From: a virus
Reading direction: 5' to 3' (one strand)
IMG/VR virus record: IMGVR_UViG_3300015050_001142
Coordinates: 1-64,000 of that record
Length of the DNA stretch: 64,000 nucleotides
A program made the translations under genes and the position numbers. The notes beneath the pieces were generated by a model, which was not told where the DNA came from, ran no database searches, and was given only the letters and a program-made list of their open reading frames with translations. This document shows, one piece after another, positions 12,809 through 40,455 of the stretch. The stretch's first letter is position 1. Each line of letters opens with the position of its first letter.

Positions 12809-12810
12809 AG

Positions 12811-13167: not shown

Positions 13168-13169
13168 AG

Positions 13170-13832
13170 TTAATATAATTTAAAATGATGAATTGATTTA
13201 GAGGGTACCAACAGCTCGTGATATCTCCATATTCCAGGTGGATCGCATGAATAACCAGTTAAGAAATCAGCCCATCCTTCATGGTACATATGATTTGAAT
13301 CAGCACCTGGATTCTCAGCTCGATCAATGTAATGAATAACTCTGATTTGAGATTCAGCTTTTAAATGTATAGAAACACCAAATGGGCCTACAGGTATTTC
13401 AAACCAATCATCACTACATTCAATAAGAGTACCATCTTTTGGTGGACGAGAATCCTTATCATTCTTTCTCCATTTGTTCGGTGATATTATTGGAAGTCCA
13501 TATTGATCATACTGATCCCGATCATGCGGCATATACATTCCAGCTTCTTGTTGAGCGTTGAGAAGATCTTGAAGTTTCATTCGTGATTCAACTTCAGTTA
13601 ACCATTGACCATCCTGATATTGTTTTACTTGTTCACCAACACGAGATTGAGGAATACCTGATCGATCATAAATAAAATTTGCAGTTTGATCATGAATTTT
13701 TATAAACTCATTGATATCACCAGAACTAAAACATTCTTCAGGTGTTCTTGGGTACTCTCTACGCATTCTTTGAATAGCATTCATAAGAGGTCTTGCTTTC
13801 TCTTGAGCTATATCATAATGATTATTACCCAT
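13170..13832 (-). CDS. array protein 3 (C-terminus HHFKLY), with a terminase-like EYPRTPEE peptide
   Basis: 220 aa ORF; RREYPRTPEECF near the N-terminus. Confidence 0.75.
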   Translation of the reverse strand: MGNNHYDIAQEKARPLMNAIQRMRREYPRTPEECFSSGDINEFIKIHDQTANFIYDRSGIPQSRVGEQVKQYQDGQWLTEVESRMKLQDLLNAQQEAGMYMPHDRDQYDQYGLPIISPNKWRKNDKDSRPPKDGTLIECSDDWFEIPVGPFGVSIHLKAESQIRVIHYIDRAENPGADSNHMYHEGWADFLTGYSCDPPGIWRYHELLVPSKSIHHFKLY

Positions 13833-16949: not shown

Positions 16950-17067
16950 ATAAATGAGTTTAATTAATGATTTAAAAAGTACCGACAACAGTAGCTGCCG
17001 GTACATTGCAATTTTACATCCGCCAGGTCTTGGATAAGATGCCTGGGCTATCTATTATGCAATATTA

Positions 17068-17439
17068 TTAGTAATGCCATTTCAATCCATAGTCTTTTGA
17101 ATGCTCAAAGATCAATTTGTTGATTGAAGTAATTAATTGATCACGTTTCTTAATCTCTTCTTGAAGCTTAAGTAATTCAAGATCCATCACTTCAGCCAAT
17201 TTAATCATGGTATAATTATCCAGGAATATTGGCTTAGGTGGCAGATCAATCATTTTAGCAAGATTATCAATATCTTCAAATGATAAGATGGTACCTGCAT
17301 CAAATAATTCTTTCTCTTTAGCTGTAGGTACCAGAATATAAATATCATTAGTCTTAGCAATTGTATTGAGTAATGTTGTGGTACCTGAATGGCGCATTCT
17401 GGATACAAATGAATGAAATGTTCGTATAAGTTGTCGCAT
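17068..17439 (-). CDS. hypothetical protein with degenerate P-loop-like RHSGTT
   Basis: 123 aa ORF. Confidence 0.6.
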   Translation of the reverse strand: MRQLIRTFHSFVSRMRHSGTTTLLNTIAKTNDIYILVPTAKEKELFDAGTILSFEDIDNLAKMIDLPPKPIFLDNYTMIKLAEVMDLELLKLQEEIKKRDQLITSINKLIFEHSKDYGLKWHY

Positions 17440-17542
17440 AGAATTAATTAAAAGTTAAAGAGAGATACGTGGCAATAAGAATCATTCTTTCAAACTTCTT
17501 ACTCTACCGTCTGCCTTTCACCGATAGTTATCTCTCAATTAT

Positions 17543-17728
17543 TTATCGATCAGGATTCATTTCACCCTGATTACTGTATGGAATTTGTGTGTCGTTATCG
17601 CCATAAGGATCGTTGAATTGTGATTCTGTTTCATCACCAATAATCCAACCACATTCATCACAGTGATCTTCATCACATGGTTCACCACAAGATGGGCAAT
17701 GATATTCTTCTTCAGGTTCGTTGTTCAT
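17543..17728 (-). CDS. acidic Zn-ribbon small protein
   Basis: CPSC/CDEC pairs; D/E rich. Confidence 0.6.
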   Translation of the reverse strand: MNNEPEEEYHCPSCGEPCDEDHCDECGWIIGDETESQFNDPYGDNDTQIPYSNQGEMNPDR

Positions 17729-17973
17729 AAAAGTAATTTTTTCTGTTCCCAAGGAACAATATAGTTATCAATAAAATTCTTTGCAGTTTGTAATGTGTGT
17801 TCAGGAGATGTATATGGTTCAAATAATTGATTACCCCACTGATCTCTCTTACCCTTGATTAGAGTACCAATTCCATGCCTACGAACTTTGAATTTACCGG
17901 TAGATAATTTCTCAAAGATCTTGTAACAAGAACCAATAAGCTCGATAGTGTAACCATTGTATTCTTGTTTCAT
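17725..17973 (-). CDS. hypothetical protein
   Basis: 82 aa ORF. Confidence 0.6.
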   Translation of the reverse strand: MKQEYNGYTIELIGSCYKIFEKLSTGKFKVRRHGIGTLIKGKRDQWGNQLFEPYTSPEHTLQTAKNFIDNYIVPWEQKKLLL

Positions 17974-17987
17974 AGAATTTAAGATTT

Positions 17988-18105
17988 AATAAAGAGATAA
18001 GCACAATGGTAGTTTAGCACCTGCTTCTGGTTAAGCTAATTCTCAGACCAGTAACCGAAGTTCTAAAAGAGAATTGCTGTCGTTTTATGTGCTTATCTCT
18101 TTATT
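17988..18105 (-). ncRNA. candidate structured RNA with 18 bp closing stem and possible pseudoknot
   Basis: AATAAAGAGATAAGCACA/TGTGCTTATCTCTTTATT; internal AATTCTC/GAGAATT crossing CTGGT/ACCAG. Confidence 0.5.
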
Positions 18106-18106
18106 G

Positions 18107-18559
18107 TTAAGGAGTTTTAGGCCAATTAGTAATAATGTATCCAACTTCATTATCAGTACTGATATTAATAATTACTTCAGCACGAAATGGTAATTCACGA
18201 TCGTTGAGTAATAGAACAGCCAATTCATTGATCTTTTGTTGAATGGCAGCAGCTTTATTATCAGATAACAATAGTTTTTCAATTGCAGGATATTCAACAA
18301 TAAGATCTGATTCATCAAACCAGGATATCTCCCCATACTTATCGAATTTCAATCCGTATTGTTTATATCCATCGTCACCTTTAGAAAATTTCCAATCAGT
18401 TTCTGATTTCTCACCATAGGTGTACATTACAGTGGCTGTATCTTCAGTGAGATATGGCGCTGTATCAGTTTCCATGATTTTGCCATTCCCATCATTAGAC
18501 CACATACGATGGCCAATCTTGACTTTGACTCTGGTACCGTTTGGATATTTAGCTTTCAT
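18107..18559 (-). CDS. hypothetical protein (SH3/KOW-like N-terminus)
   Basis: KYPNGTRVKV...SWFDESDL. Confidence 0.65.
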   Translation of the reverse strand: MKAKYPNGTRVKVKIGHRMWSNDGNGKIMETDTAPYLTEDTATVMYTYGEKSETDWKFSKGDDGYKQYGLKFDKYGEISWFDESDLIVEYPAIEKLLLSDNKAAAIQQKINELAVLLLNDRELPFRAEVIINISTDNEVGYIITNWPKTP

Positions 18560-18567
18560 AGAATTAG

Positions 18568-18765
18568 TTAATTATGAGATTCATAATATCTTTCTGCAAG
18601 TATAGCGCCGAGTATTCCCCAAGCAAAGCCATGTATAAACATAAGCTCAGAAGGACAATCAGGTACATAACGATTGATTAATACTGCAGATAAGAGATTT
18701 AACCCAAATGCCGGGATTATACAGATGAGTATTGTTTTAATCCAGAGGATTAATTTCTTGTTCAT
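18568..18765 (-). CDS. small two-TM membrane protein
   Basis: Two hydrophobic segments; likely start MNKKL. Confidence 0.6.
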   Translation of the reverse strand: MNKKLILWIKTILICIIPAFGLNLLSAVLINRYVPDCPSELMFIHGFAWGILGAILAERYYESHN

Positions 18766-18775
18766 AAGATTGAGT

Positions 18776-19078
18776 TTAAAATGATTTACTATCTCCAAAT
18801 TGTTTCTGTACCCACTCACGGAATGGAGTGAATGCTTTCTGGATCTTTTTACAGTTATTATCTAATCCATAATTCTTGCTTTTACTAATTGGAATATTGT
18901 TCTCTTTCAAGTACCATTCCACAGTTTTCTTCATAAAATTATATGAAGTGATCTTAACTGGTTGACTTCGGCGTATAGATTCCCAACCAGCATGGCCCTG
19001 AAGATATAACCATATGCCATTGAAGGCTGTATCCTCACCGCCGTAACTATTACGTTCTTTGAATGATTTGTATGGCAT
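18776..19078 (-). CDS. hypothetical protein
   Basis: 100 aa ORF. Confidence 0.6.
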   Translation of the reverse strand: MPYKSFKERNSYGGEDTAFNGIWLYLQGHAGWESIRRSQPVKITSYNFMKKTVEWYLKENNIPISKSKNYGLDNNCKKIQKAFTPFREWVQKQFGDSKSF

Positions 19079-19111
19079 AAGATTGAGTTTAGTGTACCAG
19101 GAGATGGTACT

Positions 19112-19474
19112 TTACTTAGTTATAATTTCATTAGGCAATGTGTATACTTGTTGTATTTTATACCACCATCTGTAATTACGCATGGTACCTATAAGTATAA
19201 ATACTTTTCCATCTGAGGCTTTAGGTAATTCAGCCTTGTTGATAATATTATTCATTTGATCATACAACCAAGGAGAACTTGTTAATTCATCAGTAAACCA
19301 ACAATCAATAAGATTACGTGTTGGTCCTCCAAATGCTGATACAGAGAATAATAATATACACTTATAAGTTTTATTCTTAGTTGGTGCAAAATGCCCCCAG
19401 GTATTTTCTAATACGGCTTGTATATAAGGTTGATTAGCCGCAAGAGTTATCTCAGCGTAGCTATTTGATGGCAT
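19112..19474 (-). CDS. hypothetical protein
   Basis: NTWGHFAP...SSPWLYD. Confidence 0.65.
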   Translation of the reverse strand: MPSNSYAEITLAANQPYIQAVLENTWGHFAPTKNKTYKCILLFSVSAFGGPTRNLIDCWFTDELTSSPWLYDQMNNIINKAELPKASDGKVFILIGTMRNYRWWYKIQQVYTLPNEIITK

Positions 19475-21733: not shown

Positions 21734-21937
21734 TTAATGGTTAGGGAAATTCTTTGCCATGAAATCTTTATAGCAATCTTCATTGTAATAAGTGATTCCA
21801 CTGCATTTACAGTCTTTCACGTATTCATCATACGTTTTGTATTTGCCTGTTGTAAGCTTACCTGCAATTTCAGCATGGCTGAACATGTAATCAGGATTAC
21901 AGTTCATGTGAAACTTGAGCAATCTGTTACTGTCCAT
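21734..21937 (-). CDS. hypothetical protein
   Basis: 67 aa ORF. Confidence 0.5.
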   Translation of the reverse strand: MDSNRLLKFHMNCNPDYMFSHAEIAGKLTTGKYKTYDEYVKDCKCSGITYYNEDCYKDFMAKNFPNH

Positions 21938-22030
21938 ATAATTAGTTGTTGGTTACATTTAAAATAGTACCAACAGAATCAAATACGACTGCTCGTAAAC
22001 ATCTGTTGGTACTGTAATCAGGTAAGAAGT

Positions 22031-22615
22031 CTACGCTTTAGACTCTTCAGTAGCAGTCTCATCAACCGGTACAGTTTCTTCTTTAGGAAGGAACTCATCC
22101 ATGTTGAATGTTGTGCTGCCAAGTTCTTCAGCGCGTTGAACAGCGATGCTCGAAGGATCGAGTGTTAACAGGCTACCATTGTCTGTTGTAATCATTTCCA
22201 CTTTACCGGAGATTTCAACATTCTGTGATAACTTGTCTGCAACAGCAGATGGCAACAAGATAGCAAAGCTAAACTGTGTTGCATTCAGGTATTGACTGAA
22301 CAGCTCTGAAGCTTTATCAGTTTCACCTGCTTTCTCTGCGGCTAAGCCGTCAATGAATAACTGCTTTGTTCTGGCATTCTTCATACCAACTTCACTGTTG
22401 GCTTTGGTGTTGAAGATGATCTTCTGCAACAGTGTACCATCACCAGCAATGCTGGGAACAGGCTCACCTGCTTTGTTCTTCACGTCAACAACATTACCAT
22501 TACCCTGGATAGTAAGCAAGATGCGTTTACCAACTTGTCCTGCTAATACTAACATGCGTTTCTGCATGATTGACTTCACCGATTGGCTGGTGATTACCCT
22601 TGAATTTGTGCTCAT
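22031..22615 (-). CDS. hypothetical protein with acidic C-terminal tail
   Basis: 194 aa; first gene of the leftward block. Confidence 0.75.
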   Translation of the reverse strand: MSTNSRVITSQSVKSIMQKRMLVLAGQVGKRILLTIQGNGNVVDVKNKAGEPVPSIAGDGTLLQKIIFNTKANSEVGMKNARTKQLFIDGLAAEKAGETDKASELFSQYLNATQFSFAILLPSAVADKLSQNVEISGKVEMITTDNGSLLTLDPSSIAVQRAEELGSTTFNMDEFLPKEETVPVDETATEESKA

Positions 22616-22956
22616 TGAATTGAGGTTTATTGTGAATTAATAAGAGACGAGATAAGAAGCAATGGTTACTACGTGCAACCATTGCTTGTAATTGCTGTGA
22701 TGCTAATGCATCGATCTAAGGTTTAATATCTACTCTATCTAATGCCAATGTATTTGCGGAACGATTGCATATCCATGCATCCTGTCTACATTGGGTGAGA
22801 AGTCCTATTCGTGAAGGTATTTCTCATCAACTGTGAAGTTGACACCGGGTATTTCGATTGCAAAAGTTAGCGGGGGACTGGAAAGGGAAGTGGTTCCTCA
22901 CACCCGCGATCTCAACAAAAAATTTTAGAATATAAAAATTTTTCTATCTTCACACA

Positions 22957-23536: not shown

Positions 23537-23567
23537 TCCCTGGATTTCTATCCGGGGATTTTTGTTT
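23537..23567 (+). terminator. intrinsic terminator
   Basis: TCCCTGGAT-TTCT-ATCCGGGGA followed by a T tract. Confidence 0.6.
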
Positions 23568-23588
23568 ACCTTCATAAAAACAATTACT

Positions 23589-24335
23589 ATGAATAATTAT
23601 CCCGGCCACCTTATAGAATTAGGAGATGATGATGCTCAATCAGTTAAGTTGATCAAACAACAACTCAATTCGGTATTGAAAGACTACCCATTACTTGATG
23701 TAACCAATCCACTATTCGGGCCGGAAACACTCAAACATGTAATCGCATTCCAGAAAGCTCATTCGTTAAATCCTGATGGAGTTATTGGATCTCTTACATG
23801 GAAGAAATTATTTGCTGATGATACGAGTCTACCTGTATTCCAGCCACCGGTACAATCACGGGTTTTAAGATACCATGCGCTGGAAGTGGCTAAATCTTTT
23901 CTGTGGGTACGGGAAAAGACTGGGCATAATGATGGTAAGGAAGTAGAAGGATTCCTGCACAATGTTGGATTGACCAAAGGATTTGCCTGGTGCATGGCTT
24001 TTGTGTATAGTAATTTTTTATCTGCAGCTCAAACATTGGGATTAGCTAATCCTGTACCAATGACTGCTGGTGTATTGGATTGTTGGAATAGGGTACCGGC
24101 GAGATTAAAGGTGAAAGATCCACAGAAAGGTGATCAGTTCATAATGGATTTTGGTTCTGGTCGTGGGCATACTGGTCATGTAACTGATGTGATTAATGGA
24201 TATGTTCACACTATTGAAGGGAATACTGGTGAAGATCCGGTACTGGGATCTAACTCTGATCGGGAAGGTGATGGAGTTTATGAGCGTTCACGTAAACTGG
24301 GAGTATTCAAAGGATTCATCCGGTACGAGGATTAA
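23589..24335 (+). CDS. endolysin: PG-binding domain plus CHAP amidase
   Basis: FQKAHSLNPDGVIGSLTW; WCMAFV, GHTG and TIEGNT catalytic motifs. Confidence 0.9.
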   Translation: MNNYPGHLIELGDDDAQSVKLIKQQLNSVLKDYPLLDVTNPLFGPETLKHVIAFQKAHSLNPDGVIGSLTWKKLFADDTSLPVFQPPVQSRVLRYHALEVAKSFLWVREKTGHNDGKEVEGFLHNVGLTKGFAWCMAFVYSNFLSAAQTLGLANPVPMTAGVLDCWNRVPARLKVKDPQKGDQFIMDFGSGRGHTGHVTDVINGYVHTIEGNTGEDPVLGSNSDREGDGVYERSRKLGVFKGFIRYED

Positions 24336-24342: not shown

Positions 24343-24375
24343 TTTGTTTATATCAAGCTTTTGTATTTACATTTG
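24343..24375 (+). promoter_or_regulatory. Bacteroidota primary-sigma promoter (TTTG-N21-TACATTTG) for the glycosylation cassette
   Basis: Matches the -33 TTTG / -7 TAnnTTTG consensus with plausible spacing. Confidence 0.6.
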
Positions 24376-24393: not shown

Positions 24394-25593
24394 ATGCCCA
24401 CACTACATATTATCCATCTGCCAGAGAGAACTGATCGGATGGAGCTGCTTCTCAAGGAATTACAGGAACAAGGTATTACTGATTATCGTATTTGGCCAGG
24501 TATTAAGGATGAAGCCAATCCCTGTCGCGGTATCTCTGCAGCGCACAAACAAATAGTAGCATATGCAAAAGCAAACAATCTTGAAGAGATCACTATCGCT
24601 GAGGATGATGTGTCTTTCACTGGGCCGCGAGCATGGGAATACTACCTCGCAAACAAACCAGGTACTTTCGATTTATATCTTGCGAGCGTTTATGTCTTAC
24701 ATGAAATCCGTGGGCATCACATTGAAAACTTCACAGGACTTACCCTGTATACCATTCGCGCCAGATTCTACGATACGTTCCTGTCTACATCTACCGAGGG
24801 TAACATTGATGTAAATCTGTATGGTAAGGGATGGTACGCCTTATGTTATCCATTTGCAGCTATTCAGCACGAAACTTACTCAGACAATTCCAAAGGATTA
24901 ATTAATTACCAGCAATATATTCGTGGTAAACTTCTCTATGGACAGGAGCCAGAGAAAACATTTCCAGTTAATTTATTCGTTAATTTCTATAAAGACTCAA
25001 ATGAAGATCGCTACAAAGAACTGGAGAAATGTCTCCGGTCAAACATTGCTAATCCACTTATTGATAAGGTATACGTGTTTTGTAATGAGCAGGATAGAGA
25101 CTTGGTACTGGGCTTTCCTGATCTTCATAAGGTAGGACTCATCATTAGAGAAGATCGACCAACTTATGGTGAGATGTTTGATGAAATCAATTCTCGTACC
25201 CGCGAATTTGAGGTTAATATTCTTTCCAATACAGATATCTATTTTGACGAATCACTCATTCATGTACATGGAATTAAAAATAATCAATGCTACGCTTTGT
25301 CCCGCTGGGAGTTTGGCATAGTTGAACAGGTACAGACCAGAGGAGATAGTCAAGATACATGGATCTTCCGTGGAAAGATCAGAGAATTAGCTTACACTCA
25401 TTTTACATTAGGTAAACTTGGATGTGATAATCGTATCGCGCATGAACTGGTACTGGCCGGCTATGAAGTAACAAATCCTTCACGTACAATTAAAACCTGG
25501 CATTTACATGAGTCAGGTATTCGTAATTACAATTCTACAGATGTTTCAGTACCTCAACCTTATTATAAAATCAAACCACACGAACTTGTATGA
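24394..25593 (+). CDS. two-domain glycosyltransferase (GT25-like plus GT-A-like)
   Basis: IIHLPERTDR, GISAAH, IAEDDV; second domain ILSNTDIYFD, ALSRW, DSQDTWIF, GCDNRIA. Confidence 0.75.
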   Translation: MPTLHIIHLPERTDRMELLLKELQEQGITDYRIWPGIKDEANPCRGISAAHKQIVAYAKANNLEEITIAEDDVSFTGPRAWEYYLANKPGTFDLYLASVYVLHEIRGHHIENFTGLTLYTIRARFYDTFLSTSTEGNIDVNLYGKGWYALCYPFAAIQHETYSDNSKGLINYQQYIRGKLLYGQEPEKTFPVNLFVNFYKDSNEDRYKELEKCLRSNIANPLIDKVYVFCNEQDRDLVLGFPDLHKVGLIIREDRPTYGEMFDEINSRTREFEVNILSNTDIYFDESLIHVHGIKNNQCYALSRWEFGIVEQVQTRGDSQDTWIFRGKIRELAYTHFTLGKLGCDNRIAHELVLAGYEVTNPSRTIKTWHLHESGIRNYNSTDVSVPQPYYKIKPHELV

Positions 25594-26498
25594 GAATACT
25601 TTATGTTGGAATGTGCACCGGAGAGAATGGATTTACTAAAGCGATGAAGAAACATGCAACGCAATACAGTGAAATGAATTGTGGTGAACCAATGCTTAAT
25701 GAATGTCTTGATATTGTAGCATTGGAGAATTGGGATATATTATTTCTTCAAGTACAAACACCAGGTATTATTGATCCTGAAAGAATCAGGAAGATTAAAG
25801 CTGTAGGCACCACAATATTCAACTTCACTGGAGATGTGCGAACTCCTCTTCCTGATTGGTATAAAGAACTCGCTCCGCATATCACCAGTACCATCTTCAC
25901 TAATATGAATGATGTGAAAGAAATGAAAGCATTTGGGTTTACTTCTGATTGGATGGAATATGGATTTGATCCTGAGATCTATAAACCAGAAGGCCCGATT
26001 AAACCGGTACCACCAATTGTATTCATGGGAAATAATTATGGCCCATCATATTTTCCATTAAGCAACGAGCGTATAGCAACTGTAATTGCATTGGAAAGAG
26101 AATTTGGTGCTGAGTTCGGTGTATATGGAAATGGTTGGACAAGAGCTACAGGTAATTTCAATCATTCACAAACAGAAGAAGCAGCTGCCTATCGTGGTGC
26201 TAAGATAGCTATCAACCTTTCTCATTTTGAATATGAGGATTATTCATCAGATCGACTATTAAGAATAATGGGTTGCGGTACAACGTGTTTAAGCAGATGG
26301 TACCCTGGGATACAAAAGATGCCAGTTACTTCTTATAAGACTATTGATGAGTTAATTGGTTTATGCAAGATTACTCTTAGAGAAGGCGATATACGTAAAT
26401 CTCTTGGTGCTTGCAGTAGTTTGTTCGCACATAATAATTTCACATTCGATCACATGGTACAAAATATAATAAAGCTATATGAAAAATACAAAGCCTAA
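25590..26498 (+). CDS. GT-B glycosyltransferase (CgeB / Glyco_trans_1_2-like)
   Basis: GFDPEIYKP, IVFMGN, YGNGW, AKIAINLS...SDRLLRIMGCG. Confidence 0.8.
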   Translation: MRILYVGMCTGENGFTKAMKKHATQYSEMNCGEPMLNECLDIVALENWDILFLQVQTPGIIDPERIRKIKAVGTTIFNFTGDVRTPLPDWYKELAPHITSTIFTNMNDVKEMKAFGFTSDWMEYGFDPEIYKPEGPIKPVPPIVFMGNNYGPSYFPLSNERIATVIALEREFGAEFGVYGNGWTRATGNFNHSQTEEAAAYRGAKIAINLSHFEYEDYSSDRLLRIMGCGTTCLSRWYPGIQKMPVTSYKTIDELIGLCKITLREGDIRKSLGACSSLFAHNNFTFDHMVQNIIKLYEKYKA

Positions 26499-27213
26499 AG
26501 TTATTGGTTACATACCGTTGATGTACGGTAAAGAATATCTTGATGCTTGTATTAGATCAATGGCACCATTCGTTGAAGTAATTCATATCTTCTATGTGAG
26601 TGAGCCATCACAAGGACACGCAGCTTCAGTACCATGCCCTGAATCAGAGCAGGAGTTACATGATATAGCTATTGCTGCTTCCGATAAAGTAGTATGGCAT
26701 AAATGTGCATTCGGTACTGAAGGAGAACACCGTGCAGAGATCTATAAGTATTCAGAAGGATATGACCTGGTACTCTCCCTGGATGCTGATGAAGTTCTTG
26801 ACCCAGAATTTGCAGAAGCAGCTTTACTTGATGCATTTAATGGTGATCGCAGATATTATGGTAGTTCAAGCTTCGTTAATTTCTGGCGTTCATTTAATGA
26901 GGTGTGTTATGATGGATTTCTCCCGGTACGTGTAATTAATTTACACAACGATAGTCCCTACACCGGAGCATTAGCTTTACCAATTTATCACTTCTCATGT
27001 GCTCAATCAGAAACAATCATTCGATACAAATGGGAAGTATCTGGCCATAAGGATGAACTTCGTCCAGGCTGGGTAGATAACATTCTATACGGTACCAGTA
27101 AGATTGATGTTCATCCTGTATCGCTTGGATTATGGAATGTATCACCGTTTAATCGGCATTCGCTTCCTGATATTCTTCAATTCCATCCAAACTTTAATAA
27201 AGAATCAATATGA
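26479..27213 (+). CDS. GT2-like glycosyltransferase
   Basis: EYLDACIRS; LSLDADEV (DxD motif). Confidence 0.75.
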   Translation: MKNTKPKVIGYIPLMYGKEYLDACIRSMAPFVEVIHIFYVSEPSQGHAASVPCPESEQELHDIAIAASDKVVWHKCAFGTEGEHRAEIYKYSEGYDLVLSLDADEVLDPEFAEAALLDAFNGDRRYYGSSSFVNFWRSFNEVCYDGFLPVRVINLHNDSPYTGALALPIYHFSCAQSETIIRYKWEVSGHKDELRPGWVDNILYGTSKIDVHPVSLGLWNVSPFNRHSLPDILQFHPNFNKESI

Positions 27214-27479
27214 TTAAACCAATTAGTATTCCAATCTTCCATCACACAGATCAAACAGCTAATCTTGAAGAAATGGGATTAGATGATAAAACATCTTTAG
27301 AAGATTGTGAAGAGCGTGATATGACATTCTATAATATCGATGCTACAGATTATTATCTTGAGAACGATATTAAGTATGGGTCTATTATCTGTGCTGGACA
27401 AGTATTTATTTCTCCTTGGGCAAAAGAACGTATTGATGATTTAATATTATTAATTAATTACACAAATATTCAATCATGA
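27210..27479 (+). CDS. hypothetical protein
   Basis: ATGA-coupled ORF inside the cassette. Confidence 0.6.
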   Translation: MIKPISIPIFHHTDQTANLEEMGLDDKTSLEDCEERDMTFYNIDATDYYLENDIKYGSIICAGQVFISPWAKERIDDLILLINYTNIQS

Positions 27480-28102
27480 AAAGAGGAATGGTTATAGTTG
27501 AGACACGTATCATACCTAATTTCAAAGAGGTACTAATGAACCATGTTAAGTACACTGGTTGGCCGTTAATGATTTGGCATAGTACTGCTAATGAAGCTTA
27601 TGTAAAACAATGCAGTAAGTATCTTAGCGTTGAAGTAACATTTGAAAATGTTGATCGTTGGTTCGATGATGGAATGCATGAATCAAATTATAATAAGCTA
27701 CTTACCGGTTATAATTTTTGGAATCAATTACCTTGGGATAAAGTATTAATATTCCAAAATGATTCATGGTTACTTCGTCCAGGTATTGAACAATATATGC
27801 AATATGATTTTATTGGCGCTCCTTTATATCATATTGACTTCCCTGCAATGAATGGTGGATTATCATTACGCGATCGTAGGGCAATGCTTGAGATAATTAA
27901 GAGTACTCCATATAATTCAAATGTTGGTAATGAAGATATTTATTTCTCAACCCGATGTAAAGAACAAAATTTACCAACATATGAAATAGCAACTACTTTC
28001 TCTGTAGAAACATGTTGGGGTTGGGGAAACTTTGGAGTTCACGCACTTGATAAATGGAAATCACCTGACGAATGTAAACTCATTTTAAATCAATACAAGT
28101 AA
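27476..28102 (+). CDS. DUF5672-like putative glycosyltransferase
   Basis: LIFQND, YDFIGAP, NGGLSLR, EDIYF. Confidence 0.8.
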   Translation: MKRGMVIVETRIIPNFKEVLMNHVKYTGWPLMIWHSTANEAYVKQCSKYLSVEVTFENVDRWFDDGMHESNYNKLLTGYNFWNQLPWDKVLIFQNDSWLLRPGIEQYMQYDFIGAPLYHIDFPAMNGGLSLRDRRAMLEIIKSTPYNSNVGNEDIYFSTRCKEQNLPTYEIATTFSVETCWGWGNFGVHALDKWKSPDECKLILNQYK

Positions 28103-28602
28103 TGGGACAGATGATTACTGGAGAATACACTTATGGTAATCCATCTCGCAGAGGAGAAGGAAATAATATTACTATAGGTAAGTTCTGTTCATTTGCACTG
28201 GGTGTAGTATTTGATTCAGGATTCAATCACAATTCATCATTCATATCTACTTACCCATTCCACACATTCAAATCTGAATTGCAAAGTAATATCGTTATTA
28301 AAGGTGATACTGTTGTTGGCAATGATGTGTGGGTTGGTGAACAGGCGATGATAATGAGTGGAGTTACGATTGGCGATGGTGCTGTAATTGGTATGCGTGC
28401 AATCATATCTAAAGATGTTAAACCTTATGAGATTGTTGTTGGCGCTCCGCAGAAAGTATTGCGTAAACGATTCACTGAAGAGCAGATTGAACAATTACTT
28501 TTAATCAAATGGTGGAATTGGTCTATTGAGAAGATATTGGAAAACACACACTTAATACAGAGTGATAATATAACCGAGTTTATTAACCTTCATAAAATAT
28601 AA
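28102..28602 (+). CDS. CatB/Vat-related hexapeptide O-acetyltransferase
   Basis: IGKFCSFA, ISTYPF, VGNDVWVG, SGVTIGDGAVIG, IKWWNW. Confidence 0.9.
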   Translation: MGQMITGEYTYGNPSRRGEGNNITIGKFCSFALGVVFDSGFNHNSSFISTYPFHTFKSELQSNIVIKGDTVVGNDVWVGEQAMIMSGVTIGDGAVIGMRAIISKDVKPYEIVVGAPQKVLRKRFTEEQIEQLLLIKWWNWSIEKILENTHLIQSDNITEFINLHKI

Positions 28603-28604
28603 TC

Positions 28605-29192
28605 ATGGAAACAAGAATTGAGCAAGAATTTAAATTACGTATTCAAACACCATCAGACATTAATGAATTACTTCCAGATCTTGCAAGTGCTGCAATTACG
28701 TGCCAGCACATTACAGAAATGGGAGTACGTAATCCCACAAGTACTTATGCATTTCTAAGAGGGTTGGAAGTACAGAAAGGATCTAAGAAACTTATTAGTT
28801 ACGACATTGGCCGGTACCCTGAAGTAGATTTAGTTGAACAGTTAGCAAGAGAAGCTAGTATTGATTTCACATTCATTCTTCAGGATGTGCTTGTTGCTGA
28901 TATTGAAGAAACAGATTTCTTATTCATAGATACATTCCATACTGCAACTCAACTTGAGAAAGAATTGGCATTACATGCTGGTAAAGTAAGAAAGTACATT
29001 GGCTTCCATGACACGACTACCTTCTGGGAGAATGGAGAACCATCATATGAATCAGTACAAGATAAGGGTACTAATTGCGGAAGAGGATTAAAATATGCGC
29101 TTGAACCTTTTCTGGAATCTCACCCGGAGTGGAAAATTGTACTACGCCGCGAATACAATAATGGTTTAACTATAATCGAAAGACAATCATGA
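28605..29192 (+). CDS. class I SAM-dependent methyltransferase (Methyltransf_24-like)
   Basis: EMGVR, DFLFIDTFH, YIGFHDT, NNGLTII. Confidence 0.8.
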   Translation: METRIEQEFKLRIQTPSDINELLPDLASAAITCQHITEMGVRNPTSTYAFLRGLEVQKGSKKLISYDIGRYPEVDLVEQLAREASIDFTFILQDVLVADIEETDFLFIDTFHTATQLEKELALHAGKVRKYIGFHDTTTFWENGEPSYESVQDKGTNCGRGLKYALEPFLESHPEWKIVLRREYNNGLTIIERQS

Positions 29193-29878
29193 AAATACTT
29201 GTAGGAATTCCTGTAATCACGGGAGCTGATCATTGCCGTAAAGCATTTGATTCAGTACTCAATCAAGAGAATATTGAATTACTCATCATTGATAATAACG
29301 CTGAACCGAAAGTGAAAGCATTGATTGCTGAGTACAAGGATAGATATAATGTTCATGTAACTGTTAATCCAAAGAACATTTACGTTAATGCTGCTTGGAA
29401 TCAGATCATGAATTACTTTTTGTGGTATAGTGATTGTAATTATCTTGTAATCATGAATTCTGATTTAATAATGCAGAATCAATGGGCAGAGATTTGTCGT
29501 AATAGATGGACTATTAATCCTGATGAGATAATTTTACCGGTGATACTTGAACACATTGAATTGTTTGATACAATTGCAACAAGTGTATTAGAGCCTGTTG
29601 TCGCTTACGCAGGTACACCGGGAGTATTTATTACATTAAATAGAAATCAGGCCAAGTTTGTTAATCCAATAAATAGGGAGTTAAAGATTTGGTTTGGTGA
29701 TAATTGGATCTTCGATACTCTACGTAGAAAAGGGTACCTTACTGTTATACCGAATAATCTTCAGGCTAAACATGCATGGAGTAGTACGATTAACCGGGTA
29801 CCTGAAGCTCATGAGATTATCGAACAGGATAAAATTGCTTGGGAGAAAATCAAACATTTAGTTTATGGAGAAGTATAA
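29189..29878 (+). CDS. GT2 family glycosyltransferase
   Basis: ILVGIPV, LIIDNN, NAAWNQ, MNSDL, WFGDNW. Confidence 0.8.
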   Translation: MKILVGIPVITGADHCRKAFDSVLNQENIELLIIDNNAEPKVKALIAEYKDRYNVHVTVNPKNIYVNAAWNQIMNYFLWYSDCNYLVIMNSDLIMQNQWAEICRNRWTINPDEIILPVILEHIELFDTIATSVLEPVVAYAGTPGVFITLNRNQAKFVNPINRELKIWFGDNWIFDTLRRKGYLTVIPNNLQAKHAWSSTINRVPEAHEIIEQDKIAWEKIKHLVYGEV

Positions 29879-30215
29879 AACTTCAGTCAAAGATATTCCT
29901 GAGTGTAATCAGAAACTAATTCATGAAGTAGCGAAGATGAATAAGGTTTCTCCTGCAAAAGCGAAAGATATTATGGATTTCGTTGGTACCTATATTGGTA
30001 ATGTTATCAAAAAAGGTCAGATGGAAACAGTAATGATTCCTAACTTTGGTAAATTCAAACCGAAACAGAGTTTATTGAAAGCATTACATTATTCAAAGAT
30101 CAATCAACCAATTCAAACAACGATATTCAAAATTCTTAAAGGTAAGAATGTAAAACTGGAGAACAATGACATTATTCGAGATAGACCAGGAGACGAACCT
30201 GGTGAAAATAAATAA
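29865..30215 (+). CDS. HU/IHF-like DNA-binding protein
   Basis: LIHEVAK...V.IPNFGKFKP. Confidence 0.7.
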   Translation: MEKYKTSVKDIPECNQKLIHEVAKMNKVSPAKAKDIMDFVGTYIGNVIKKGQMETVMIPNFGKFKPKQSLLKALHYSKINQPIQTTIFKILKGKNVKLENNDIIRDRPGDEPGENK

Positions 30216-30999: not shown

Positions 31000-33102
31000 A
31001 TGGCATTTCATAATTTAGTTAATACAAGATTATTCTCTGAAGCAGCAACAGATTGGAAATCTAATGGTGGAAGATATACGATGGCACCAAAAGGTTCTCG
31101 TGATTATTTTCAGTATTGGGAAGAACAGGAGAAGCGATGTAAGTTCGGATATAGTGTTGGTGATTTGTGGATACCCGGTCGGATGTATTTCTGGCTGAAT
31201 TTCTTTCCAATGTCAAGGGTACCAGATTCTGTATTGATGAAAGCACTTGATGAACGCAGAGATAAACGAGGTAAATTATCTGTAACTACTGCTGAGAAAA
31301 TAATATCATTTCCCGCATTCTGGGAAATCCACTATGAATGGTGGAGATTCAAACATATTTCCTGGTACGGCGGTGAATTCATGGGAATTAAATCAGATGG
31401 TGGTAAGCATCTTGGTTGTTTAAAAACCCGTGGTGCCGGTTTCTCTTATCTTGAAGCTTGTGATGGTGTATATAATTACAACTTCATTCCCGGTAGCAAA
31501 TCTTATTATTTTGCTGGCGCTGAACCATTCTTAGTTGGTGATGCGATTATGGATAAGGTACAAACAGCTCTTGACTGGATCAATGAATATTCTTCTTACT
31601 GGAAACAGAATAGGCAGAAGAAGTTCTCACTCATGCACCAGAAAGGTTCTTACATCGATGAATTCGGTGTTGAGCGCGGGAAAATGCCTGAGATCATTGC
31701 ACAGATCGTTGATAAACCTTCAAAGACTCGTGGTAAGCGTGGAAGAAAAGCTTCATTTGAAGAAGCAGGCTCATTTCCTAATCTGGAAGCAGCTCTTGAA
31801 GTATCGATGGGTTCTATGCGTGAAGGTTCTGTATATGTGGGCCAGATCTCAGTATTCGGTACCGGTGGTGAAGTTGGACCAGGTATTCAAGGTTTGGAGA
31901 ATATCTTTAATTCGCCTGAATCCTGGGATATGCTTGCGTTTCCTAATATTTGGGATGAAGGTATGTACGGAACTCAATGTGGATACTTTGTACCATGTTG
32001 GAGAGCTAACTCCTGGTTCATGGATGAAGATGGTAATGTTGATATGGAATCAGCTATTGCTGCAGATGATCGGGAACGGGAGAAAAAGAAAAAATCTGGC
32101 CGGCCGAAGGATTTGGATAGAAGAAAGGCTGAGTACCCACGAACTCCGGCCGAAGCACTGCAGCGTATTAGTGATAATGGATTCAATATCGCGGAGATTG
32201 ACGCACAGATATCCCGGATATTAACCAATAAATCTATCCAGGCTATGATCCGCCACGGTAAGTTGATTACCTCAACAACTGGTACTGGCGGAATTGACTT
32301 TGTACCGCAATCAAAAGCTGTAGCTAAACCTATTGAAGACTTCCCACATAAGAAAGGTGATGATTTAACTGGCTGTTTCTCTATTATTGAACGACCATTT
32401 ACTGATCAGAATGGATTGGTACCCAAAGGAATGTATGTGATCAGCGTGGATAGTTATTCAAAAGAAGAATCCGAGGATGTAACATCGCTGTTCTCATTTA
32501 AAGTGTGGAAACAGGAGAATACTATTGATCCGGCATATGCTGGATTACCGGTAGCCTGGTACGCGGGCCGACCAAAACGATTAGATGATAACCATGACAT
32601 ATTATTCAATGCATCTCAATACTTTAACGCTGATATACAAGGTGAAATAGCCGGCGGTGGCCAGATGATCGTCAATTATGCCCGTACCCATAAACTCATG
32701 CACCGGTTAAAGCATGAGCCGGATATGATTCACAATAAAGAATTGGCAAGTAAATCTGCAGGTAATTCTTATTTGATGAATATGTCAACTGAGCGTAAGG
32801 AAGTAGGACTTACCTATCTGGAAGATTGGCATGTACAGCCACGCGGATTAGACGACAAGGGTAATAAGGTACTGAATGTTCATAGGATCTATGATATTGC
32901 CTGGTTGAGAGAAATGAAGAAACATCACTCAAAATTAAACTGCGATCGTATCTCTGATGCGATTATTGCTATGTACGAATTAAAGGAAAGAATGGCTATT
33001 CTGGTACAGGCCAGAGCTGAAACCAGAGGCTTTTACTCAAATAAACGGGTATTATATGGTGGATCAGCTATGAATACTGGTGGCCGTACTACCGCATATT
33101 AA
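31000..33102 (+). CDS. terL: terminase large subunit
   Basis: LKTRGAGFSY Walker A-like motif, FEEAGSF Walker B, FGTGG, nuclease-domain ISVDSY and DRISD; crAss-type. Confidence 0.92.
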   Translation: MAFHNLVNTRLFSEAATDWKSNGGRYTMAPKGSRDYFQYWEEQEKRCKFGYSVGDLWIPGRMYFWLNFFPMSRVPDSVLMKALDERRDKRGKLSVTTAEKIISFPAFWEIHYEWWRFKHISWYGGEFMGIKSDGGKHLGCLKTRGAGFSYLEACDGVYNYNFIPGSKSYYFAGAEPFLVGDAIMDKVQTALDWINEYSSYWKQNRQKKFSLMHQKGSYIDEFGVERGKMPEIIAQIVDKPSKTRGKRGRKASFEEAGSFPNLEAALEVSMGSMREGSVYVGQISVFGTGGEVGPGIQGLENIFNSPESWDMLAFPNIWDEGMYGTQCGYFVPCWRANSWFMDEDGNVDMESAIAADDREREKKKKSGRPKDLDRRKAEYPRTPAEALQRISDNGFNIAEIDAQISRILTNKSIQAMIRHGKLITSTTGTGGIDFVPQSKAVAKPIEDFPHKKGDDLTGCFSIIERPFTDQNGLVPKGMYVISVDSYSKEESEDVTSLFSFKVWKQENTIDPAYAGLPVAWYAGRPKRLDDNHDILFNASQYFNADIQGEIAGGGQMIVNYARTHKLMHRLKHEPDMIHNKELASKSAGNSYLMNMSTERKEVGLTYLEDWHVQPRGLDDKGNKVLNVHRIYDIAWLREMKKHHSKLNCDRISDAIIAMYELKERMAILVQARAETRGFYSNKRVLYGGSAMNTGGRTTAY

Positions 33103-36783: not shown

Positions 36784-38313
36784 ATGTCAAGTAACACTTT
36801 AGTTCCCCAGATGAAGTTCCAGGTACAGGAACAGATATTTGATGCTAAGAGTATGTTGGATGAAACCAACTTTTACCATCAGCGTCAAGGTATGCCGTCC
36901 GAGCTTACCAAAAAGTTAACCTATATCCTCGGATCTCAGAAACGTAACTATCCATTGTCACTTATGACTCTTGGTGCAGGTGGTTTCAACACTGATAACA
37001 AAGGTGGTGGATCAGCTATCGAGATCGATGATGTACAGTACACTTATCCGGTAATGACCCGCACCAACAAAGCATCAGTTATTTACTCAACAGAGTATGT
37101 AACCGGTGATAAGCCTGGTATTGGCCACGGTAAGTTCTACGCAACATTTACTGATAACTGGATCAAACGTTTCTATGTTCTCCAATCTACAGGTGGTACC
37201 CAAGCTTACGTACATAGCGATGGTGAACCGGTAGCAGGTGGTTACAGATATGAACTCCAGTTAGATCCGGCCGGCCCGACAGATTTCTGTCCTTTGGCAC
37301 AGCTTGATCCCGGTACTCGTTGGGTTGAATTACATACAGCAGTAGCAGAATCTGAATCCCGTTCAACTGAGAGCAAAATGGTTATGCCAGGTTTGTTCAA
37401 GAATCAGATGGGTTTCATGAGAGCTGGTATGAGCTGGGCAGGTAATTCAGCAAATAAAATGATGAGGATCACAGTTAAAACCGATAAAGGTGAGACTGAT
37501 ATGTGGATGGATTACTACATGTGGCAGATGGAAGAGCGTTGGGCTGAAGAGTGTGAGCACATGTATTGGTACAGCCGTTATAACAGACTCGTTGATGGTT
37601 CTATTCCATTGAAAGATATGTTCACCGGTAAAGTAATTCCGCGTGGTTCCGGTGTATTTGAACAGATCACAAACAAATCAACCTATGCCCGCCTTACTTT
37701 GAATGCTTTGACAAATAAAGTAGGTGATGCATTGTTTGGTCAGACTGATACTGGTGGAATGACTATTACCCTTATGACCGGTACTGGTGGTATGAGAGAG
37801 TTTGATCGTGCTTGTCGTGAGGCAGGTATTGCTAAACTTGGACCATTCGGTGCAGGTGATATCGCCAGCAAATTTGTATCTGGTACAGGATATAACTTGG
37901 CTTTGGGTGGATACTTTGATACTTTCTATCATATTGATGGATATACAATTAAAGTAAAACATAACCCGGTATTCGATACAGGTCGTGTTGCGCTGGCTTC
38001 TCCATTACACCCTGAAAGTGGTTTACCACTGGAATCTTACAGGATGTGTTTCCTTGATGATAGCGATGTTGATGGATCACCAAATATCCGTCACGTAGCA
38101 CAGAAAGGCCGTTCATTCCTGGATGGTGTTGTAAAAGGTTTAACTCCAATGCCACGTTCATTACAAATCTTGATCGGTTCTACCGGTGGTGCAGCTTCTA
38201 AAGATTTGGCAACTGTGCAGGATAAGAGTGAATACACAAGGTTTAAATCTGCAGGTATTCAGATCATGCGCGCTAACCGCTGCTTTGATCTCCAGTGTAT
38301 CGCAGGTCAATAA
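36784..38313 (+). CDS. major capsid protein
   Basis: 509 aa; GSGVFEQI, LMTGTGGMREF, GYTIKVKHNPVFD, HPESGLPLESYRM, as in crAss-like MCPs. Confidence 0.9.
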   Translation: MSSNTLVPQMKFQVQEQIFDAKSMLDETNFYHQRQGMPSELTKKLTYILGSQKRNYPLSLMTLGAGGFNTDNKGGGSAIEIDDVQYTYPVMTRTNKASVIYSTEYVTGDKPGIGHGKFYATFTDNWIKRFYVLQSTGGTQAYVHSDGEPVAGGYRYELQLDPAGPTDFCPLAQLDPGTRWVELHTAVAESESRSTESKMVMPGLFKNQMGFMRAGMSWAGNSANKMMRITVKTDKGETDMWMDYYMWQMEERWAEECEHMYWYSRYNRLVDGSIPLKDMFTGKVIPRGSGVFEQITNKSTYARLTLNALTNKVGDALFGQTDTGGMTITLMTGTGGMREFDRACREAGIAKLGPFGAGDIASKFVSGTGYNLALGGYFDTFYHIDGYTIKVKHNPVFDTGRVALASPLHPESGLPLESYRMCFLDDSDVDGSPNIRHVAQKGRSFLDGVVKGLTPMPRSLQILIGSTGGAASKDLATVQDKSEYTRFKSAGIQIMRANRCFDLQCIAGQ

Positions 38314-38423: not shown

Positions 38424-39374
38424 ATGAAGACAACGGAAAAACACCTAAACAGTAAAACAGTCACCATCTTTCGATCAGGATCATTTCTGGCCCGCGCGCA
38501 GGGGCCGGCTATCCAGGATTATTTTGAATCAGCCAAAGTATCCATTGGTTCTTATTTTGAATCACAGAGTTCTACAATGATTGGTTCAGGATTAACCTTT
38601 GAAGAACAAAGGGTATTAATGCCGATATTAGTTGATGCTCCATTTGAGGATAGAGAGTTCAGGAAACTGGTACGTGACTACTTTTCAAATATTGATACGA
38701 AAGTACCACATGGTACCGGCTGTATTCTTGAGATTGGTTTAGCGAAAAATAATGCTGAACCAGTGAGTCTTGAAAATATGCCAATCTCTATCGTTGACTT
38801 TGTTCGGTACCGTCATGCTTATCATCACCCTTTTATGGCATTAAGTAAAGAAGAAGCGGATAGTAATCCTACCAAACAGTATTACATTTTTGATAAATCT
38901 CAATTACAGGAAAAGAATAAGAAAAATACTCAGGAAGCCGATGCTGCAATGGCATTGTACCTGGCTGTGAAGAAAGATGAATCTAAAGTGAATATGCTTC
39001 TTACATTACTTGGCCTTGATCCGCGTTCCTTTACAAGTGAGTCAGATAAAACTGATAAACTGAAAGAAATTGCAGTACAAACACCGGAGAAATTTACTGA
39101 GAAACATAACAGCGATGATTTCGATATCAGGTATTGGATTGAATCAATGAAGAATGTAAAAATTCTTTTGTTGATTGGGCAGAAATATATCAATGCTGAT
39201 ACCAAAAAAGTTATTGGTAACACATTGGAAGAAACTATCTACTTCTTCAAAGATGATGCGAATTCAGATGAGGTTGGTATCCTGAAAGCTAAGATGCAAG
39301 AGGCTTTACGTAATCCATTAGAAGCTCAGAAACGTGCAACCGCGCCGAAAGAAGGTACTGGTGCAACAAAATAA
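38424..39374 (+). CDS. crAss-like virion-module protein following MCP
   Basis: Synteny; 316 aa. Confidence 0.65.
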   Translation: MKTTEKHLNSKTVTIFRSGSFLARAQGPAIQDYFESAKVSIGSYFESQSSTMIGSGLTFEEQRVLMPILVDAPFEDREFRKLVRDYFSNIDTKVPHGTGCILEIGLAKNNAEPVSLENMPISIVDFVRYRHAYHHPFMALSKEEADSNPTKQYYIFDKSQLQEKNKKNTQEADAAMALYLAVKKDESKVNMLLTLLGLDPRSFTSESDKTDKLKEIAVQTPEKFTEKHNSDDFDIRYWIESMKNVKILLLIGQKYINADTKKVIGNTLEETIYFFKDDANSDEVGILKAKMQEALRNPLEAQKRATAPKEGTGATK

Positions 39375-39380
39375 TTTTGT

Positions 39381-40436
39381 ATGACAGTTAACGAAATGCA
39401 TATTGAATTAAGACAATCCGCTAATCAGATTGGTGCAAACAAAAGTCGTAAGTACGAACCTGAAGAATTGGATTGGATACTTAACAAGATGTATAATCGT
39501 TTTATACAATCAAAACTTAAACCAAAGAAAGACGGATCTGGTGGCTTTGAACTGGACCAGATCAGTGCAGACCAGATCCGTACTTTAATTGTTCCTTCAT
39601 ATGACTTGGTACCCTATGTAGATGATAGTAGAAGGTACCAATGTTTTCTCCCGGCTGATTACGCTTACCTGTTGTCTGATTGGTCAGCTACAACATTACT
39701 TTGTACTGGAGATACCATTACTGAAACAGCTGAGAATCTCTATATAACAGCGATCAGACAAGATTACTCTACCGGTGCTTCTCCAAGCGGATTCTATCGA
39801 ACATTGAAAGTATTGTTTCCTGATGCAACTGTAGAAATTCCAACTGATTTACCTTATGGTAATAATTATCAAGGATACACAAAGAAGACAGATATTTCAT
39901 TTCTGATTCCTTGGATTCGTGCTAAGGGCCAATATTACTGGGAAAGATTCGCTGATTTGTTTTATCCTGGCTATTACATCCATACCTCTTTAACTCCGGT
40001 CGCATCACCAATTCCTACGATTGGTATTACCATTGATGGAATTACTTACCATACATACCAATACGTGATCAAGAATCTGGTGAAACATACCGGTACCGGT
40101 CAGATAAGAGATAATCGGTTAACAGCTTCTAATAAAATCTCAGGCTTAAACAGCACCCCATTCTGGAAATCTTCTCATTATAGTCCTGTTTCCGAGCTTG
40201 GAAATGGAATTTTATATATTTACAGAGATAATAGCTTCACAGTAAATGGTGTGAGCATTTCTTACATTAGGAAACCTGTCCCAATCAGTTTAAGTTTGAA
40301 TACAAATTGTGAATTACCTGAAGAGTTTCATCAAACGATCTGTGATTTAGCAACTCAGTACATGGCCGGAAGGTTAAAAGATGGAGATGCTTACCAACTT
40401 GATAAAGATGATAACGACACCAGAGTAGTTCTATAA
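39381..40436 (+). CDS. ring/head-tail adaptor protein
   Basis: MTVNEMH...EELDWILN; C-terminal YIRKP..I...CELPEEFHQTI.DLA. Confidence 0.75.
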   Translation: MTVNEMHIELRQSANQIGANKSRKYEPEELDWILNKMYNRFIQSKLKPKKDGSGGFELDQISADQIRTLIVPSYDLVPYVDDSRRYQCFLPADYAYLLSDWSATTLLCTGDTITETAENLYITAIRQDYSTGASPSGFYRTLKVLFPDATVEIPTDLPYGNNYQGYTKKTDISFLIPWIRAKGQYYWERFADLFYPGYYIHTSLTPVASPIPTIGITIDGITYHTYQYVIKNLVKHTGTGQIRDNRLTASNKISGLNSTPFWKSSHYSPVSELGNGILYIYRDNSFTVNGVSISYIRKPVPISLSLNTNCELPEEFHQTICDLATQYMAGRLKDGDAYQLDKDDNDTRVVL

Positions 40437-40455
40437 CCCACTAAAAATTATTATC

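Follow-up and report, generated by a model that had tools for sequence, protein, structure and literature searches.

The window analysed here comprises the leading 64 kb of a 95,585-bp IMG/VR record (IMGVR_UViG_3300015050_001142) rated complete by CheckV, and the element of interest is a cassette of eight plus-strand open reading frames (ORFs), g1 to g8, which occupies positions 24394–29878 and encodes predicted glycosyltransferases (GTs), an acetyltransferase, and a methyltransferase. The source genome is that of a divergent crAss-like phage. Its TerL (31000–33102), portal protein, and major capsid protein (MCP) resemble phrog_6681, phrog_6547, and phrog_11589, respectively, and the identity of the MCP to those of crAss002, cr11_1, and other GenBank crAss-like phages is only about 33%. 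The MCP gene lies at 36784–38313, and adjacent head proteins are encoded at 38424–41376.

An earlier note on this DNA had described eight tightly coupled genes between an endolysin gene and an HU-terminase-capsid block, and the ORF coordinates and overlaps agree with this description. Successive junctions from g1 to g8 are overlaps of 4, 20, 4, 4, and 1 nt, a 2-nt gap, and a 4-nt overlap, with ATGA overlaps bounding g4 on either side, and g8 overlaps the following HU-like gene (29865–30215) by 14 nt. Counting the latter, seven of eight junctions are overlaps of 1–20 nt, and one is the 2-nt gap. Since g8 overlaps the HU-like gene, the cassette is physically continuous with the HU-p256-TerL-portal-MCP block, and its eight genes are translationally coupled to one another and to the HU-TerL-portal-MCP block. 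The GC content of the cassette is the same as that of the rest of the genome.

Upstream of the cassette lies an endolysin gene (23562–24335), assigned to PHROG endolysin families. In the 58-nt gap between this gene and g1, a Bacteroidota-type promoter-like motif, TTTG-N21-TACATTTG, was read directly on the plus strand at positions 24343–24375, 19 nt before g1; no terminator-like hairpin was found in the same gap. A pattern search of the window returned two matches to the motif versus 1.4 expected, and the motif is therefore not significant by itself. It is suggestive solely through its location, and the promoter that the earlier note had assigned to the cassette is best described as a plausible promoter motif.

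Predicted glycosyltransferases and capping enzymes of the cassette

The first gene, g1 (24394–25593), encodes a 399-aa protein for which an AlphaFold2 (AF2) model with a pLDDT of 94 was compared with known structures by VIA. The N-terminal domain, g1N (residues 1–172, positions 24394–24909), is a GT-A glycosyltransferase of the GT25 fold, which aligns with the GT25 domain of human COLGALT1 (Z 18.2, root-mean-square deviation of 1.9 Å over 166 residues), Mimivirus R655 (Z 16.8, 22% identity), and a bacterial beta-1,4-galactosyltransferase (8xkd, Z 15.8). The PF01755 score was 16.8 bits for the isolated domain and 14.2 bits for the whole protein, below the cut-off of 24, and g1N is therefore called GT25-like on its fold alone; PF01755 was matched by 8 of 19 g1N family members at E ≤ 0.01, with a best E-value of 1e-4. 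HKQ and E70-D71-D72 are invariant in the 19 sequences of the family, and the domain thus combines the GT25 fold with an acidic metal/nucleotide motif, while remaining under the Pfam gathering score.

The C-terminal domain, g1C (residues 187–399, positions 24952–25593), has a GT-A fold and belongs to a family without a Pfam model. Its residues 187–390 resemble the GT2/GT27-type GT-A enzymes WrtF fucosyltransferase, RmlT, ppGalNAc-T2, and SpsA with VIA Z-scores of 12–13, and an N-T-D281 motif follows strand 274–279, in keeping with a GT-A enzyme. No Pfam domain was found on the g1C part in any of more than 100 homologous protein clusters. Elsewhere, g1C homologs occur on their own or as fusions with PF13524, GT2, methyltransferase, or exostosin domains.

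The second and the eighth genes encode glycosyltransferases that are recognised by their sequence profiles. The g2 protein (25590–26498) is a member of the Glyco_trans_1_2 family (PF13524, CgeB-like GT-B half), with a match of 39.1 bits (cut-off 25, E 8.8e-10) over residues 167–294, although a PDB sequence and profile search with it gave nothing informative. The g8 protein (29189–29878) is a GT2 (GT-A) glycosyltransferase that matches PF00535 with 44.3 bits (cut-off 23.3, E 2.4e-11) and resembles phrog_29879, annotated as galactosyl transferase; an N90-S91-D92 motif, in place of DxD, is invariant in ten family members.

The product of g3 (26479–27213), of about 245 aa, is a putative GT-A-like enzyme with a D102-A-D104 motif and represents a phage-borne family without a Pfam model; it had no Pfam, PHROG, or NCBIfam match. 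A profile built from 47 sequences matched the GT2 domain of GmaR with an E-value of 5e-4, the aligned stretch scoring only 16.7 bits and covering D102-A-D104. GmaR is the flagellin O-GlcNAc transferase. A word-indexed search assigned 181 clusters to the g3 family, and among 1.84 billion representatives 147, 304, and 742 belong to it at E ≤ 1e-30, 1e-10, and 1e-3, respectively. Some members (P0243 with 809 aa, P0283, P0358, and P0366) are found at the C- or N-terminal end of proteins that are far longer, and these fusions might disclose functional partners.

The g5 protein (27476–28102), a core member of the cassette, is a DUF5672 protein (PF18922, E 7.5e-27, 94 bits) and a putative glycosyltransferase; its neighbours in the Atlas are DUF5672 clusters that are 80–100% viral. 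No PDB profile match was obtained, hhalign against the g1N and g3 profiles gave probabilities below 1%, and no second Pfam family was found on 25 relatives of g5. It is perhaps a glycosyltransferase, but the profile searches gave no link to a GT or to a solved structure. The earlier note had counted five GT genes with about six domains; five domains (g1N, g1C, g2, g3, and g8) have family or fold support, while the DUF5672 protein g5 has no demonstrable link to GTs.

Two further proteins could modify the glycan. The g6 protein (28102–28602) is a left-handed beta-helix (hexapeptide) acetyltransferase of the xenobiotic acetyltransferase (XAT; CatB/Vat) type, as indicated by matches to Hexapep (38.9 bits), PDB entry 5ux9 (E 5.5e-38), and phrog_16087 (1e-49), and it has the hexapeptide fold of XAT enzymes as well as their His-containing loop; the O-acetyltransferase of the earlier note is thereby recovered as a CatB/Vat-like protein. 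An assignment of g6 to the Vat or CatB antibiotic acetyltransferase equivalogs was rejected because its scores are far below the NCBIfam cut-offs (145.6 bits versus 300 for Vat, 140.9 versus 350 for CatB), and no claim of resistance is therefore made.

The g7 protein (28605–29192) has a class I fold typical of S-adenosylmethionine (SAM)-dependent O-methyltransferases of the cation-dependent type. Its AF2 model (pLDDT 93.7) gave as the top Foldseek match MeT1 of Mycobacterium hassiacum (6g80, E 1e-8, TM-score 0.68, probability 1.0), a sugar O-methyltransferase of methylmannose polysaccharide, followed by CCoAOMT-like Mg-dependent O-methyltransferases with TM-scores of 0.58–0.61, which places g7 in this fold. 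It had no Pfam match, and the PDB profile search was uninformative, so the methyltransferase named in the earlier note is supported by fold and not by a sequence family.

The remaining gene, g4 (27210–27479), encodes an 89-aa acidic protein confined to the clade of the source phage. Only two homologs were found in 5.8 billion clusters: one, from a contig of 91,801 bp, is 93% identical, and the other, from a contig of 1,950 bp, is 74% identical. None occurs in other cassette loci. No confident fold was obtained (Atlas pLDDT 0.41), and all leads of the Atlas look-up were below the threshold. In the sister phage, the identity of g4 (93%) exceeds that of the flanking enzymes g1 (71%) and g3 (80%). 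It may be a clade-specific partner or regulator.

No transmembrane or signal segment was detected in the eight cassette proteins, and all of them are predicted to be soluble. All cassette proteins of the window for which family alignments were available retain every invariant column, and there is thus no sign of catalytic decay; the degenerate catalytic residues that the earlier note had named as evidence against its proposal were not seen. Altogether, the family and fold assignments support a model in which soluble enzymes build an oligosaccharide step by step and decorate it with acetyl and methyl groups.

The module in other phages

Homologs of g3 were found on 167 IMG/VR contigs and in none of 50,697 GenBank phage records; 80 loci kept from the g3-bearing contigs are the basis of the counts given below. 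Searches of the same GenBank records with g1, g3, and g5 gave no crAss-like record among the few matches, and a megablast search of GenBank phages with the cassette gave no match. The GenBank phage matches of g5 and g1C are limited to metagenomic records of huge phages, plus Synechococcus phage S-SKS1 for g1C. In this cyanophage (L133, 33286–33996), the g1C homolog directly follows a nucleotide-sugar epimerase gene. Another homolog of the g1C family is present on a contig of a giant-virus metagenome-assembled genome (L004).

Among the 80 loci, g2 is present in 73 (37–45% identity), g5 in 72, and g1C in 68, while g7 was found in 16, g6 in 10 (44–61% identity), and g8 in 10. The order g1C-g2-g3-g5-g6-g7-g8 is repeated in L057 and L064 and, without g6, in L093; L072, L116, and L132 carry six or seven cassette genes with small differences in order and content. 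The identities of the recurrent cassette genes are 36–63%. The MCP of the source phage had no match in five complete or long records that carry the module, which indicates that the carriers are other lineages and, consequently, that the module moves between lineages while its position is kept.

Placement in or beside morphogenesis genes, in the same orientation, recurs in at least eight unrelated contexts; the annotated loci are described below. An MCP family of the L068 type, the largest group, was found in 37 of the 80 loci, and the gene order annotated in L068 is TerL, portal, head morphogenesis, protease, MCP, then g2-g3-g5-g1C and another GT, followed by the head-tail adaptor, neck, tail terminator, and major tail protein. 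In L132 the cassette lies between a protease plus a capsid-like gene and the portal; in L093 and L116 it precedes TerL, which in L116 is followed by the portal; in L060 it is followed by a tail-fibre gene. In L057, a primase/helicase is followed by the cassette, an extra GT, and a TerL of the crAss TerL PHROG. In the HK97-type locus L002, glycan genes (7787–13547) are flanked by capsid and tape measure genes, and g2 is fused to g1C. L064 contains a primase/helicase, the cassette, and a further GT, and no virion gene was found in its flanks. In all these contexts except L064, the module has the same orientation as the virion or packaging genes.

Some of these loci have further peculiarities. 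L057 is a complete 73-kb phage with direct terminal repeats and a full cassette, and its TerL (16982–19189) matches phrog_6681 at 2e-29, whereas the MCP of the source phage has no match in its record; it may represent a distant crAss-related lineage. The glycan set of L002 comprises a GT1+GT2 fusion, the g1C+PF13524 fusion, a polysaccharide pyruvyl transferase, a methyltransferase, and a GNAT acetyltransferase. On the viral contig L001 (5631–13693), three separate SAM methyltransferases are located near SLT and tail-fibre-like genes, and a 1,237-aa protein of this contig contains two g1C-like domains and GT2 domains.

The situation within Crassvirales is different. No homolog of the cassette genes was found, up to 10 kb upstream, in the 18 loci nearest by TerL (53–61% identity), in which HU-p256-TerL-portal is kept, and the late block of the nearest crAss relatives begins only one to three genes before HU. 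The absence of the cassette from the nearest relatives indicates that this 5.5-kb segment is an insertion in a small clade. Its sister-phage homologs lie on contigs of 91,801 and 91,392 bp, with identities of 71% and 63% for g1, 80% and 58% for g3, and 93% for g4; scans of viral and metagenomic contigs using the g1 alignment did not recover these two contigs. Within Crassvirales, the cassette would thus be a lineage-specific accessory trait, acquired by one crAss-like clade. It is not peculiar to crAss-like phages, a point absent from the earlier note, but is a conserved, portable, and largely unannotated module, widespread in other uncultured phages.

Candidate targets of the glycan

The DISCRIMINATING possible targets of such an oligosaccharide are virion proteins, the host envelope, another soluble acceptor, and DNA. 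The most likely function of the cassette, to which we assign a probability of roughly 45%, is to build a capped oligosaccharide on virion proteins, a target that we infer from the data given below. The soluble enzymes would act in the cytoplasm of the infected cell, late in infection, and the host pools of nucleotide sugars, acetyl-CoA, and SAM would supply the substrates. One glycosyltransferase would attach the first sugar to a surface-exposed amino acid of a virion protein, be it in the capsid, a decoration, or a fibre, the remaining GTs (g1N, g1C, g2, g3, g8, and perhaps g5) would add one sugar each, and the acetyltransferase g6 and the O-methyltransferase g7 would cap the chain. The particle would thereby acquire a coat of glycans, comparable to the virion glycosylation of mycobacteriophages and the capsid glycans of chloroviruses. 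We likewise infer late expression, the acceptor and the sugars, the order in which the enzymes act, and any benefit, which could be shielding, stability, or adhesion.

Virion glycosylation is favoured because the mobile module repeatedly lands inside structural operons of unrelated phages, and because there are precedents in mycobacteriophages, chloroviruses, and Mimivirus. The combination of five GT domains with an acetyltransferase and an O-methyltransferase fold also supports it, as do the translational coupling to the HU-TerL-portal-MCP block and the absence of transmembrane and signal segments and of export machinery of its own. The nearest structures of g1N, the protein-O-glycosylating COLGALT1 and Mimivirus R655, and GmaR as the nearest one to g3, point in the same direction. 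Freeman et al. (2023, Cell Host Microbe), as cited in PMC12619734, reported glycans on the C-termini of mycobacteriophage capsid and tail-tube proteins.

Several observations weigh against a virion target. No marked Ser/Thr tract was found in the virion proteins of the source phage, including the MCP and the 40456 protein, which the earlier note had called Thr-rich and proposed as a candidate acceptor; the latter is moderately rich in Thr (14%) but has no low-complexity tract. The C-termini of the L068-type MCPs form a short conserved tail that is not Ser/Thr-rich either, and no specific acceptor is supported. Hopping among unrelated capsids would need an initiating enzyme of broad specificity or an acceptor that does not differ from phage to phage. 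Moreover, GT25 enzymes also make lipo-oligosaccharide (LOS), and the fold matches are silent on the acceptor. Gene position is circumstantial: a late-region GT between portal and MCP was read by Benler et al. (PMC8008677) as serving capsule remodelling, and DNA-sugar clusters are likewise found near structural genes (Pyle et al., bioRxiv 10.1101/2023.12.21.572611). The virion-protein target proposed in the earlier note thus gains from the co-orientation of the cassettes in or against morphogenesis modules, and it is still a proposal.

The same enzymes could remodel the host envelope, working at the cytoplasmic face on host lipid-linked intermediates (the lipopolysaccharide (LPS) or LOS core, the capsule, or another glycolipid) and relying on the host flippase and export systems, so that superinfection, or the re-adsorption of progeny to lysing cells, would be blocked during virion maturation. 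Acetyl and methyl caps are typical of O-antigens. The GT25 relatives include bacterial LOS beta-1,4-galactosyltransferases (8xkd, Z 15.8), g1C is similar to WrtF and RmlT, whose substrates are polysaccharides or teichoic acids, and envelope remodelling was proposed by Benler et al. for the late-region portal/MCP GT in 'Gratiaviridae' (PMC8008677).

The gene content of the source phage bears on this alternative. No matches to Epimerase and NTP_transferase, the two sugar-nucleotide families tested, were found in the 95.6-kb genome, so that host pools would be needed with either target. A crude hydropathy scan of the genome revealed no ORF of at least 60 aa with more than three hydrophobic segments, which means that flippase, polymerase, and Gtr-type enzymes are missing from the phage's own gene set; the lack of nucleotide-sugar, flippase, and polymerase genes reported in the earlier note for the window therefore extends to the whole genome for the families and the scan used. 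With no multi-pass membrane flippase, polymerase, priming transferase, or Gtr enzyme, the cassette does not qualify as a Wzx/Wzy- or Gtr-type system, and a self-sufficient surface-polysaccharide or Gtr-type system is excluded. The cassette is similar to the GtrA/GtrB/Gtr-type and Oac genes of temperate phages in providing phage-encoded transfer of sugar and acetyl groups to a glycan, but Gtr and Oac are integral membrane proteins of prophages acting in the periplasm, whereas the cassette proteins appear soluble and the genome has no multi-pass membrane protein.

Envelope remodelling is also at odds with the absence of a priming phosphoglycosyl transferase and with the movement of the core among unrelated phages with presumably different hosts, given that lipid-linked acceptors are host-specific. 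Given the coupling to the late block, a lytic cycle would hardly be long enough for the surface to turn over, and the site between MCP and adaptor genes in the largest group is atypical for exclusion genes. On balance, we regard the host envelope as a rather unlikely target.

Two other ORFs with hydrophobic segments were noted shortly upstream of the endolysin gene on the plus strand, at 21737–21967 and 22353–22640, with two such segments each. They may be candidates for a holin or a spanin; the second overlaps a 194-aa minus-strand ORF and is possibly not real.

DNA is a third conceivable acceptor, which the earlier note had listed as an alternative: the GTs would attach a sugar chain to a modified base and so evade restriction. 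DNA is present in every phage, which would make it a fitting acceptor for a mobile module, and phage GT clusters able to put mono- to trisaccharides on 5hmC have been described, in places close to structural and terminase genes (Pyle et al., bioRxiv 10.1101/2023.12.21.572611). These clusters resemble the cassette in their GT-A or GT-B enzymes and, sometimes, in their place beside terminase or structural genes (Pyle et al. 2024), but they are defined by a thymidylate-synthase-like hydroxymethylase, or by 5mYOX together with a C5-methylase. The source genome, in contrast, has no match to a ThyS-like hydroxymethylase or to the C5-cytosine methylase family (PF00145), and the cassette is thus not a DNA sugar-hypermodification cluster in this sense. 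A search for Tet/JBP (PF12851) gave no match, but the control was silent too. A thymidylate-synthase (PF00303) match at 79303–79608 was rejected as spurious, having 17 bits and being located inside a HATPase_c_3 protein. This MORC/GHKL-type protein of 952 aa is encoded on the minus strand of the replication arm (genome positions 78820–81678; L135:14820–17678).

The composition of the genome argues in the same direction. Twenty 6-bp palindromes, with up to 14 copies expected for each, are wholly missing from the 95.6-kb genome, including CCATGG (14 expected), TTCGAA (13.5), and GGATCC (11.6); the observed-to-expected ratio of CTAG is 0.17, and GGTACC is present 105 times. Such strong avoidance of restriction sites is a mark of DNA that is open to restriction. 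Besides, the fold of g7 is that of a small-molecule or sugar O-methyltransferase and not of a DNA methylase, and DNA is known to carry one to three sugars, fewer than the five or six GT domains of the cassette (Pyle et al.). The alternative of DNA hypermodification is therefore weakened to the point of being very improbable.

Finally, the oligosaccharide could be assembled on another soluble acceptor, such as a non-virion protein of the host or the phage, or the g4 product; or it could be linked to a small molecule or released free, and might then regulate, protect, or act as a decoy. Small molecules are frequent substrates of XAT-type acetyltransferases and CCoAOMT-like O-methyltransferases, and in the sister phage g4 is better conserved than the enzymes (71–80%). 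The absence of g4 from all other cassette loci means that it cannot be the general acceptor, and the steady placement of the module in blocks of virion genes would be left unexplained. We consider such an acceptor improbable.

A portable set of glycosylation genes

Virion glycosylation, the preferred interpretation, has its closest parallel in mycobacteriophages of the Che8 and Corndog type. These phages encode a soluble GT set, with an O-methyltransferase in some, and draw on the sugar nucleotides of the host; their enzymes are presumed or shown to modify capsid and tail proteins in the cytoplasm. Their glycans were shown by mass spectrometry on capsid and tail-tube C-termini, whereas a glycan made by the cassette of the source phage is predicted from its genes. 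The cassette also differs in being larger, with five or six GT domains in addition to the acetyl- and methyl-capping enzymes, in its families, most of which lack Pfam models, in its hosts, and in forming a conserved mobile block.

Multi-domain GT-A enzymes and methyltransferase activity are likewise encoded by chlorovirus PBCV-1 (A064R, A111/114R, A075L) and Mimivirus (R655, R699). The PBCV-1 enzymes build capped oligosaccharides on virion proteins without the host secretory machinery. Both viruses are giant viruses of eukaryotes, however, and at the low sequence identity observed the similarity reflects a shared fold and not orthology.

Phage-encoded glycosylation clusters are already known; what is new is a portable module in uncultured phages that has been acquired by a crAss-like clade. 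One could tentatively propose that the core g1C-g2-g3-g5, with g6-g7-g8 as optional additions, is a self-contained, horizontally mobile kit for a virion glycocalyx that serves unrelated capsids of the crAss and HK97 types, although we would not yet favour this proposal over its negation. If it is true, a considerable share of the uncultured phage particles in the environment, among them those of a crAss-like lineage, would bear a coat of capped oligosaccharides made by enzyme families that are still unnamed. The g1N, g1C, g3, g7, and DUF5672 families include no characterised member, and four of the five lack a Pfam model.

To our knowledge, the glycans of phage particles are almost unstudied outside mycobacteriophages and giant viruses. 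The portable cassette offers a concrete set of genes for asking whether phage particles are commonly glycosylated, and a glycan coat would be relevant to the stability of the virions, their adhesion to mucus or particles, their recognition by host defence and immune systems, and the reading of viromes.

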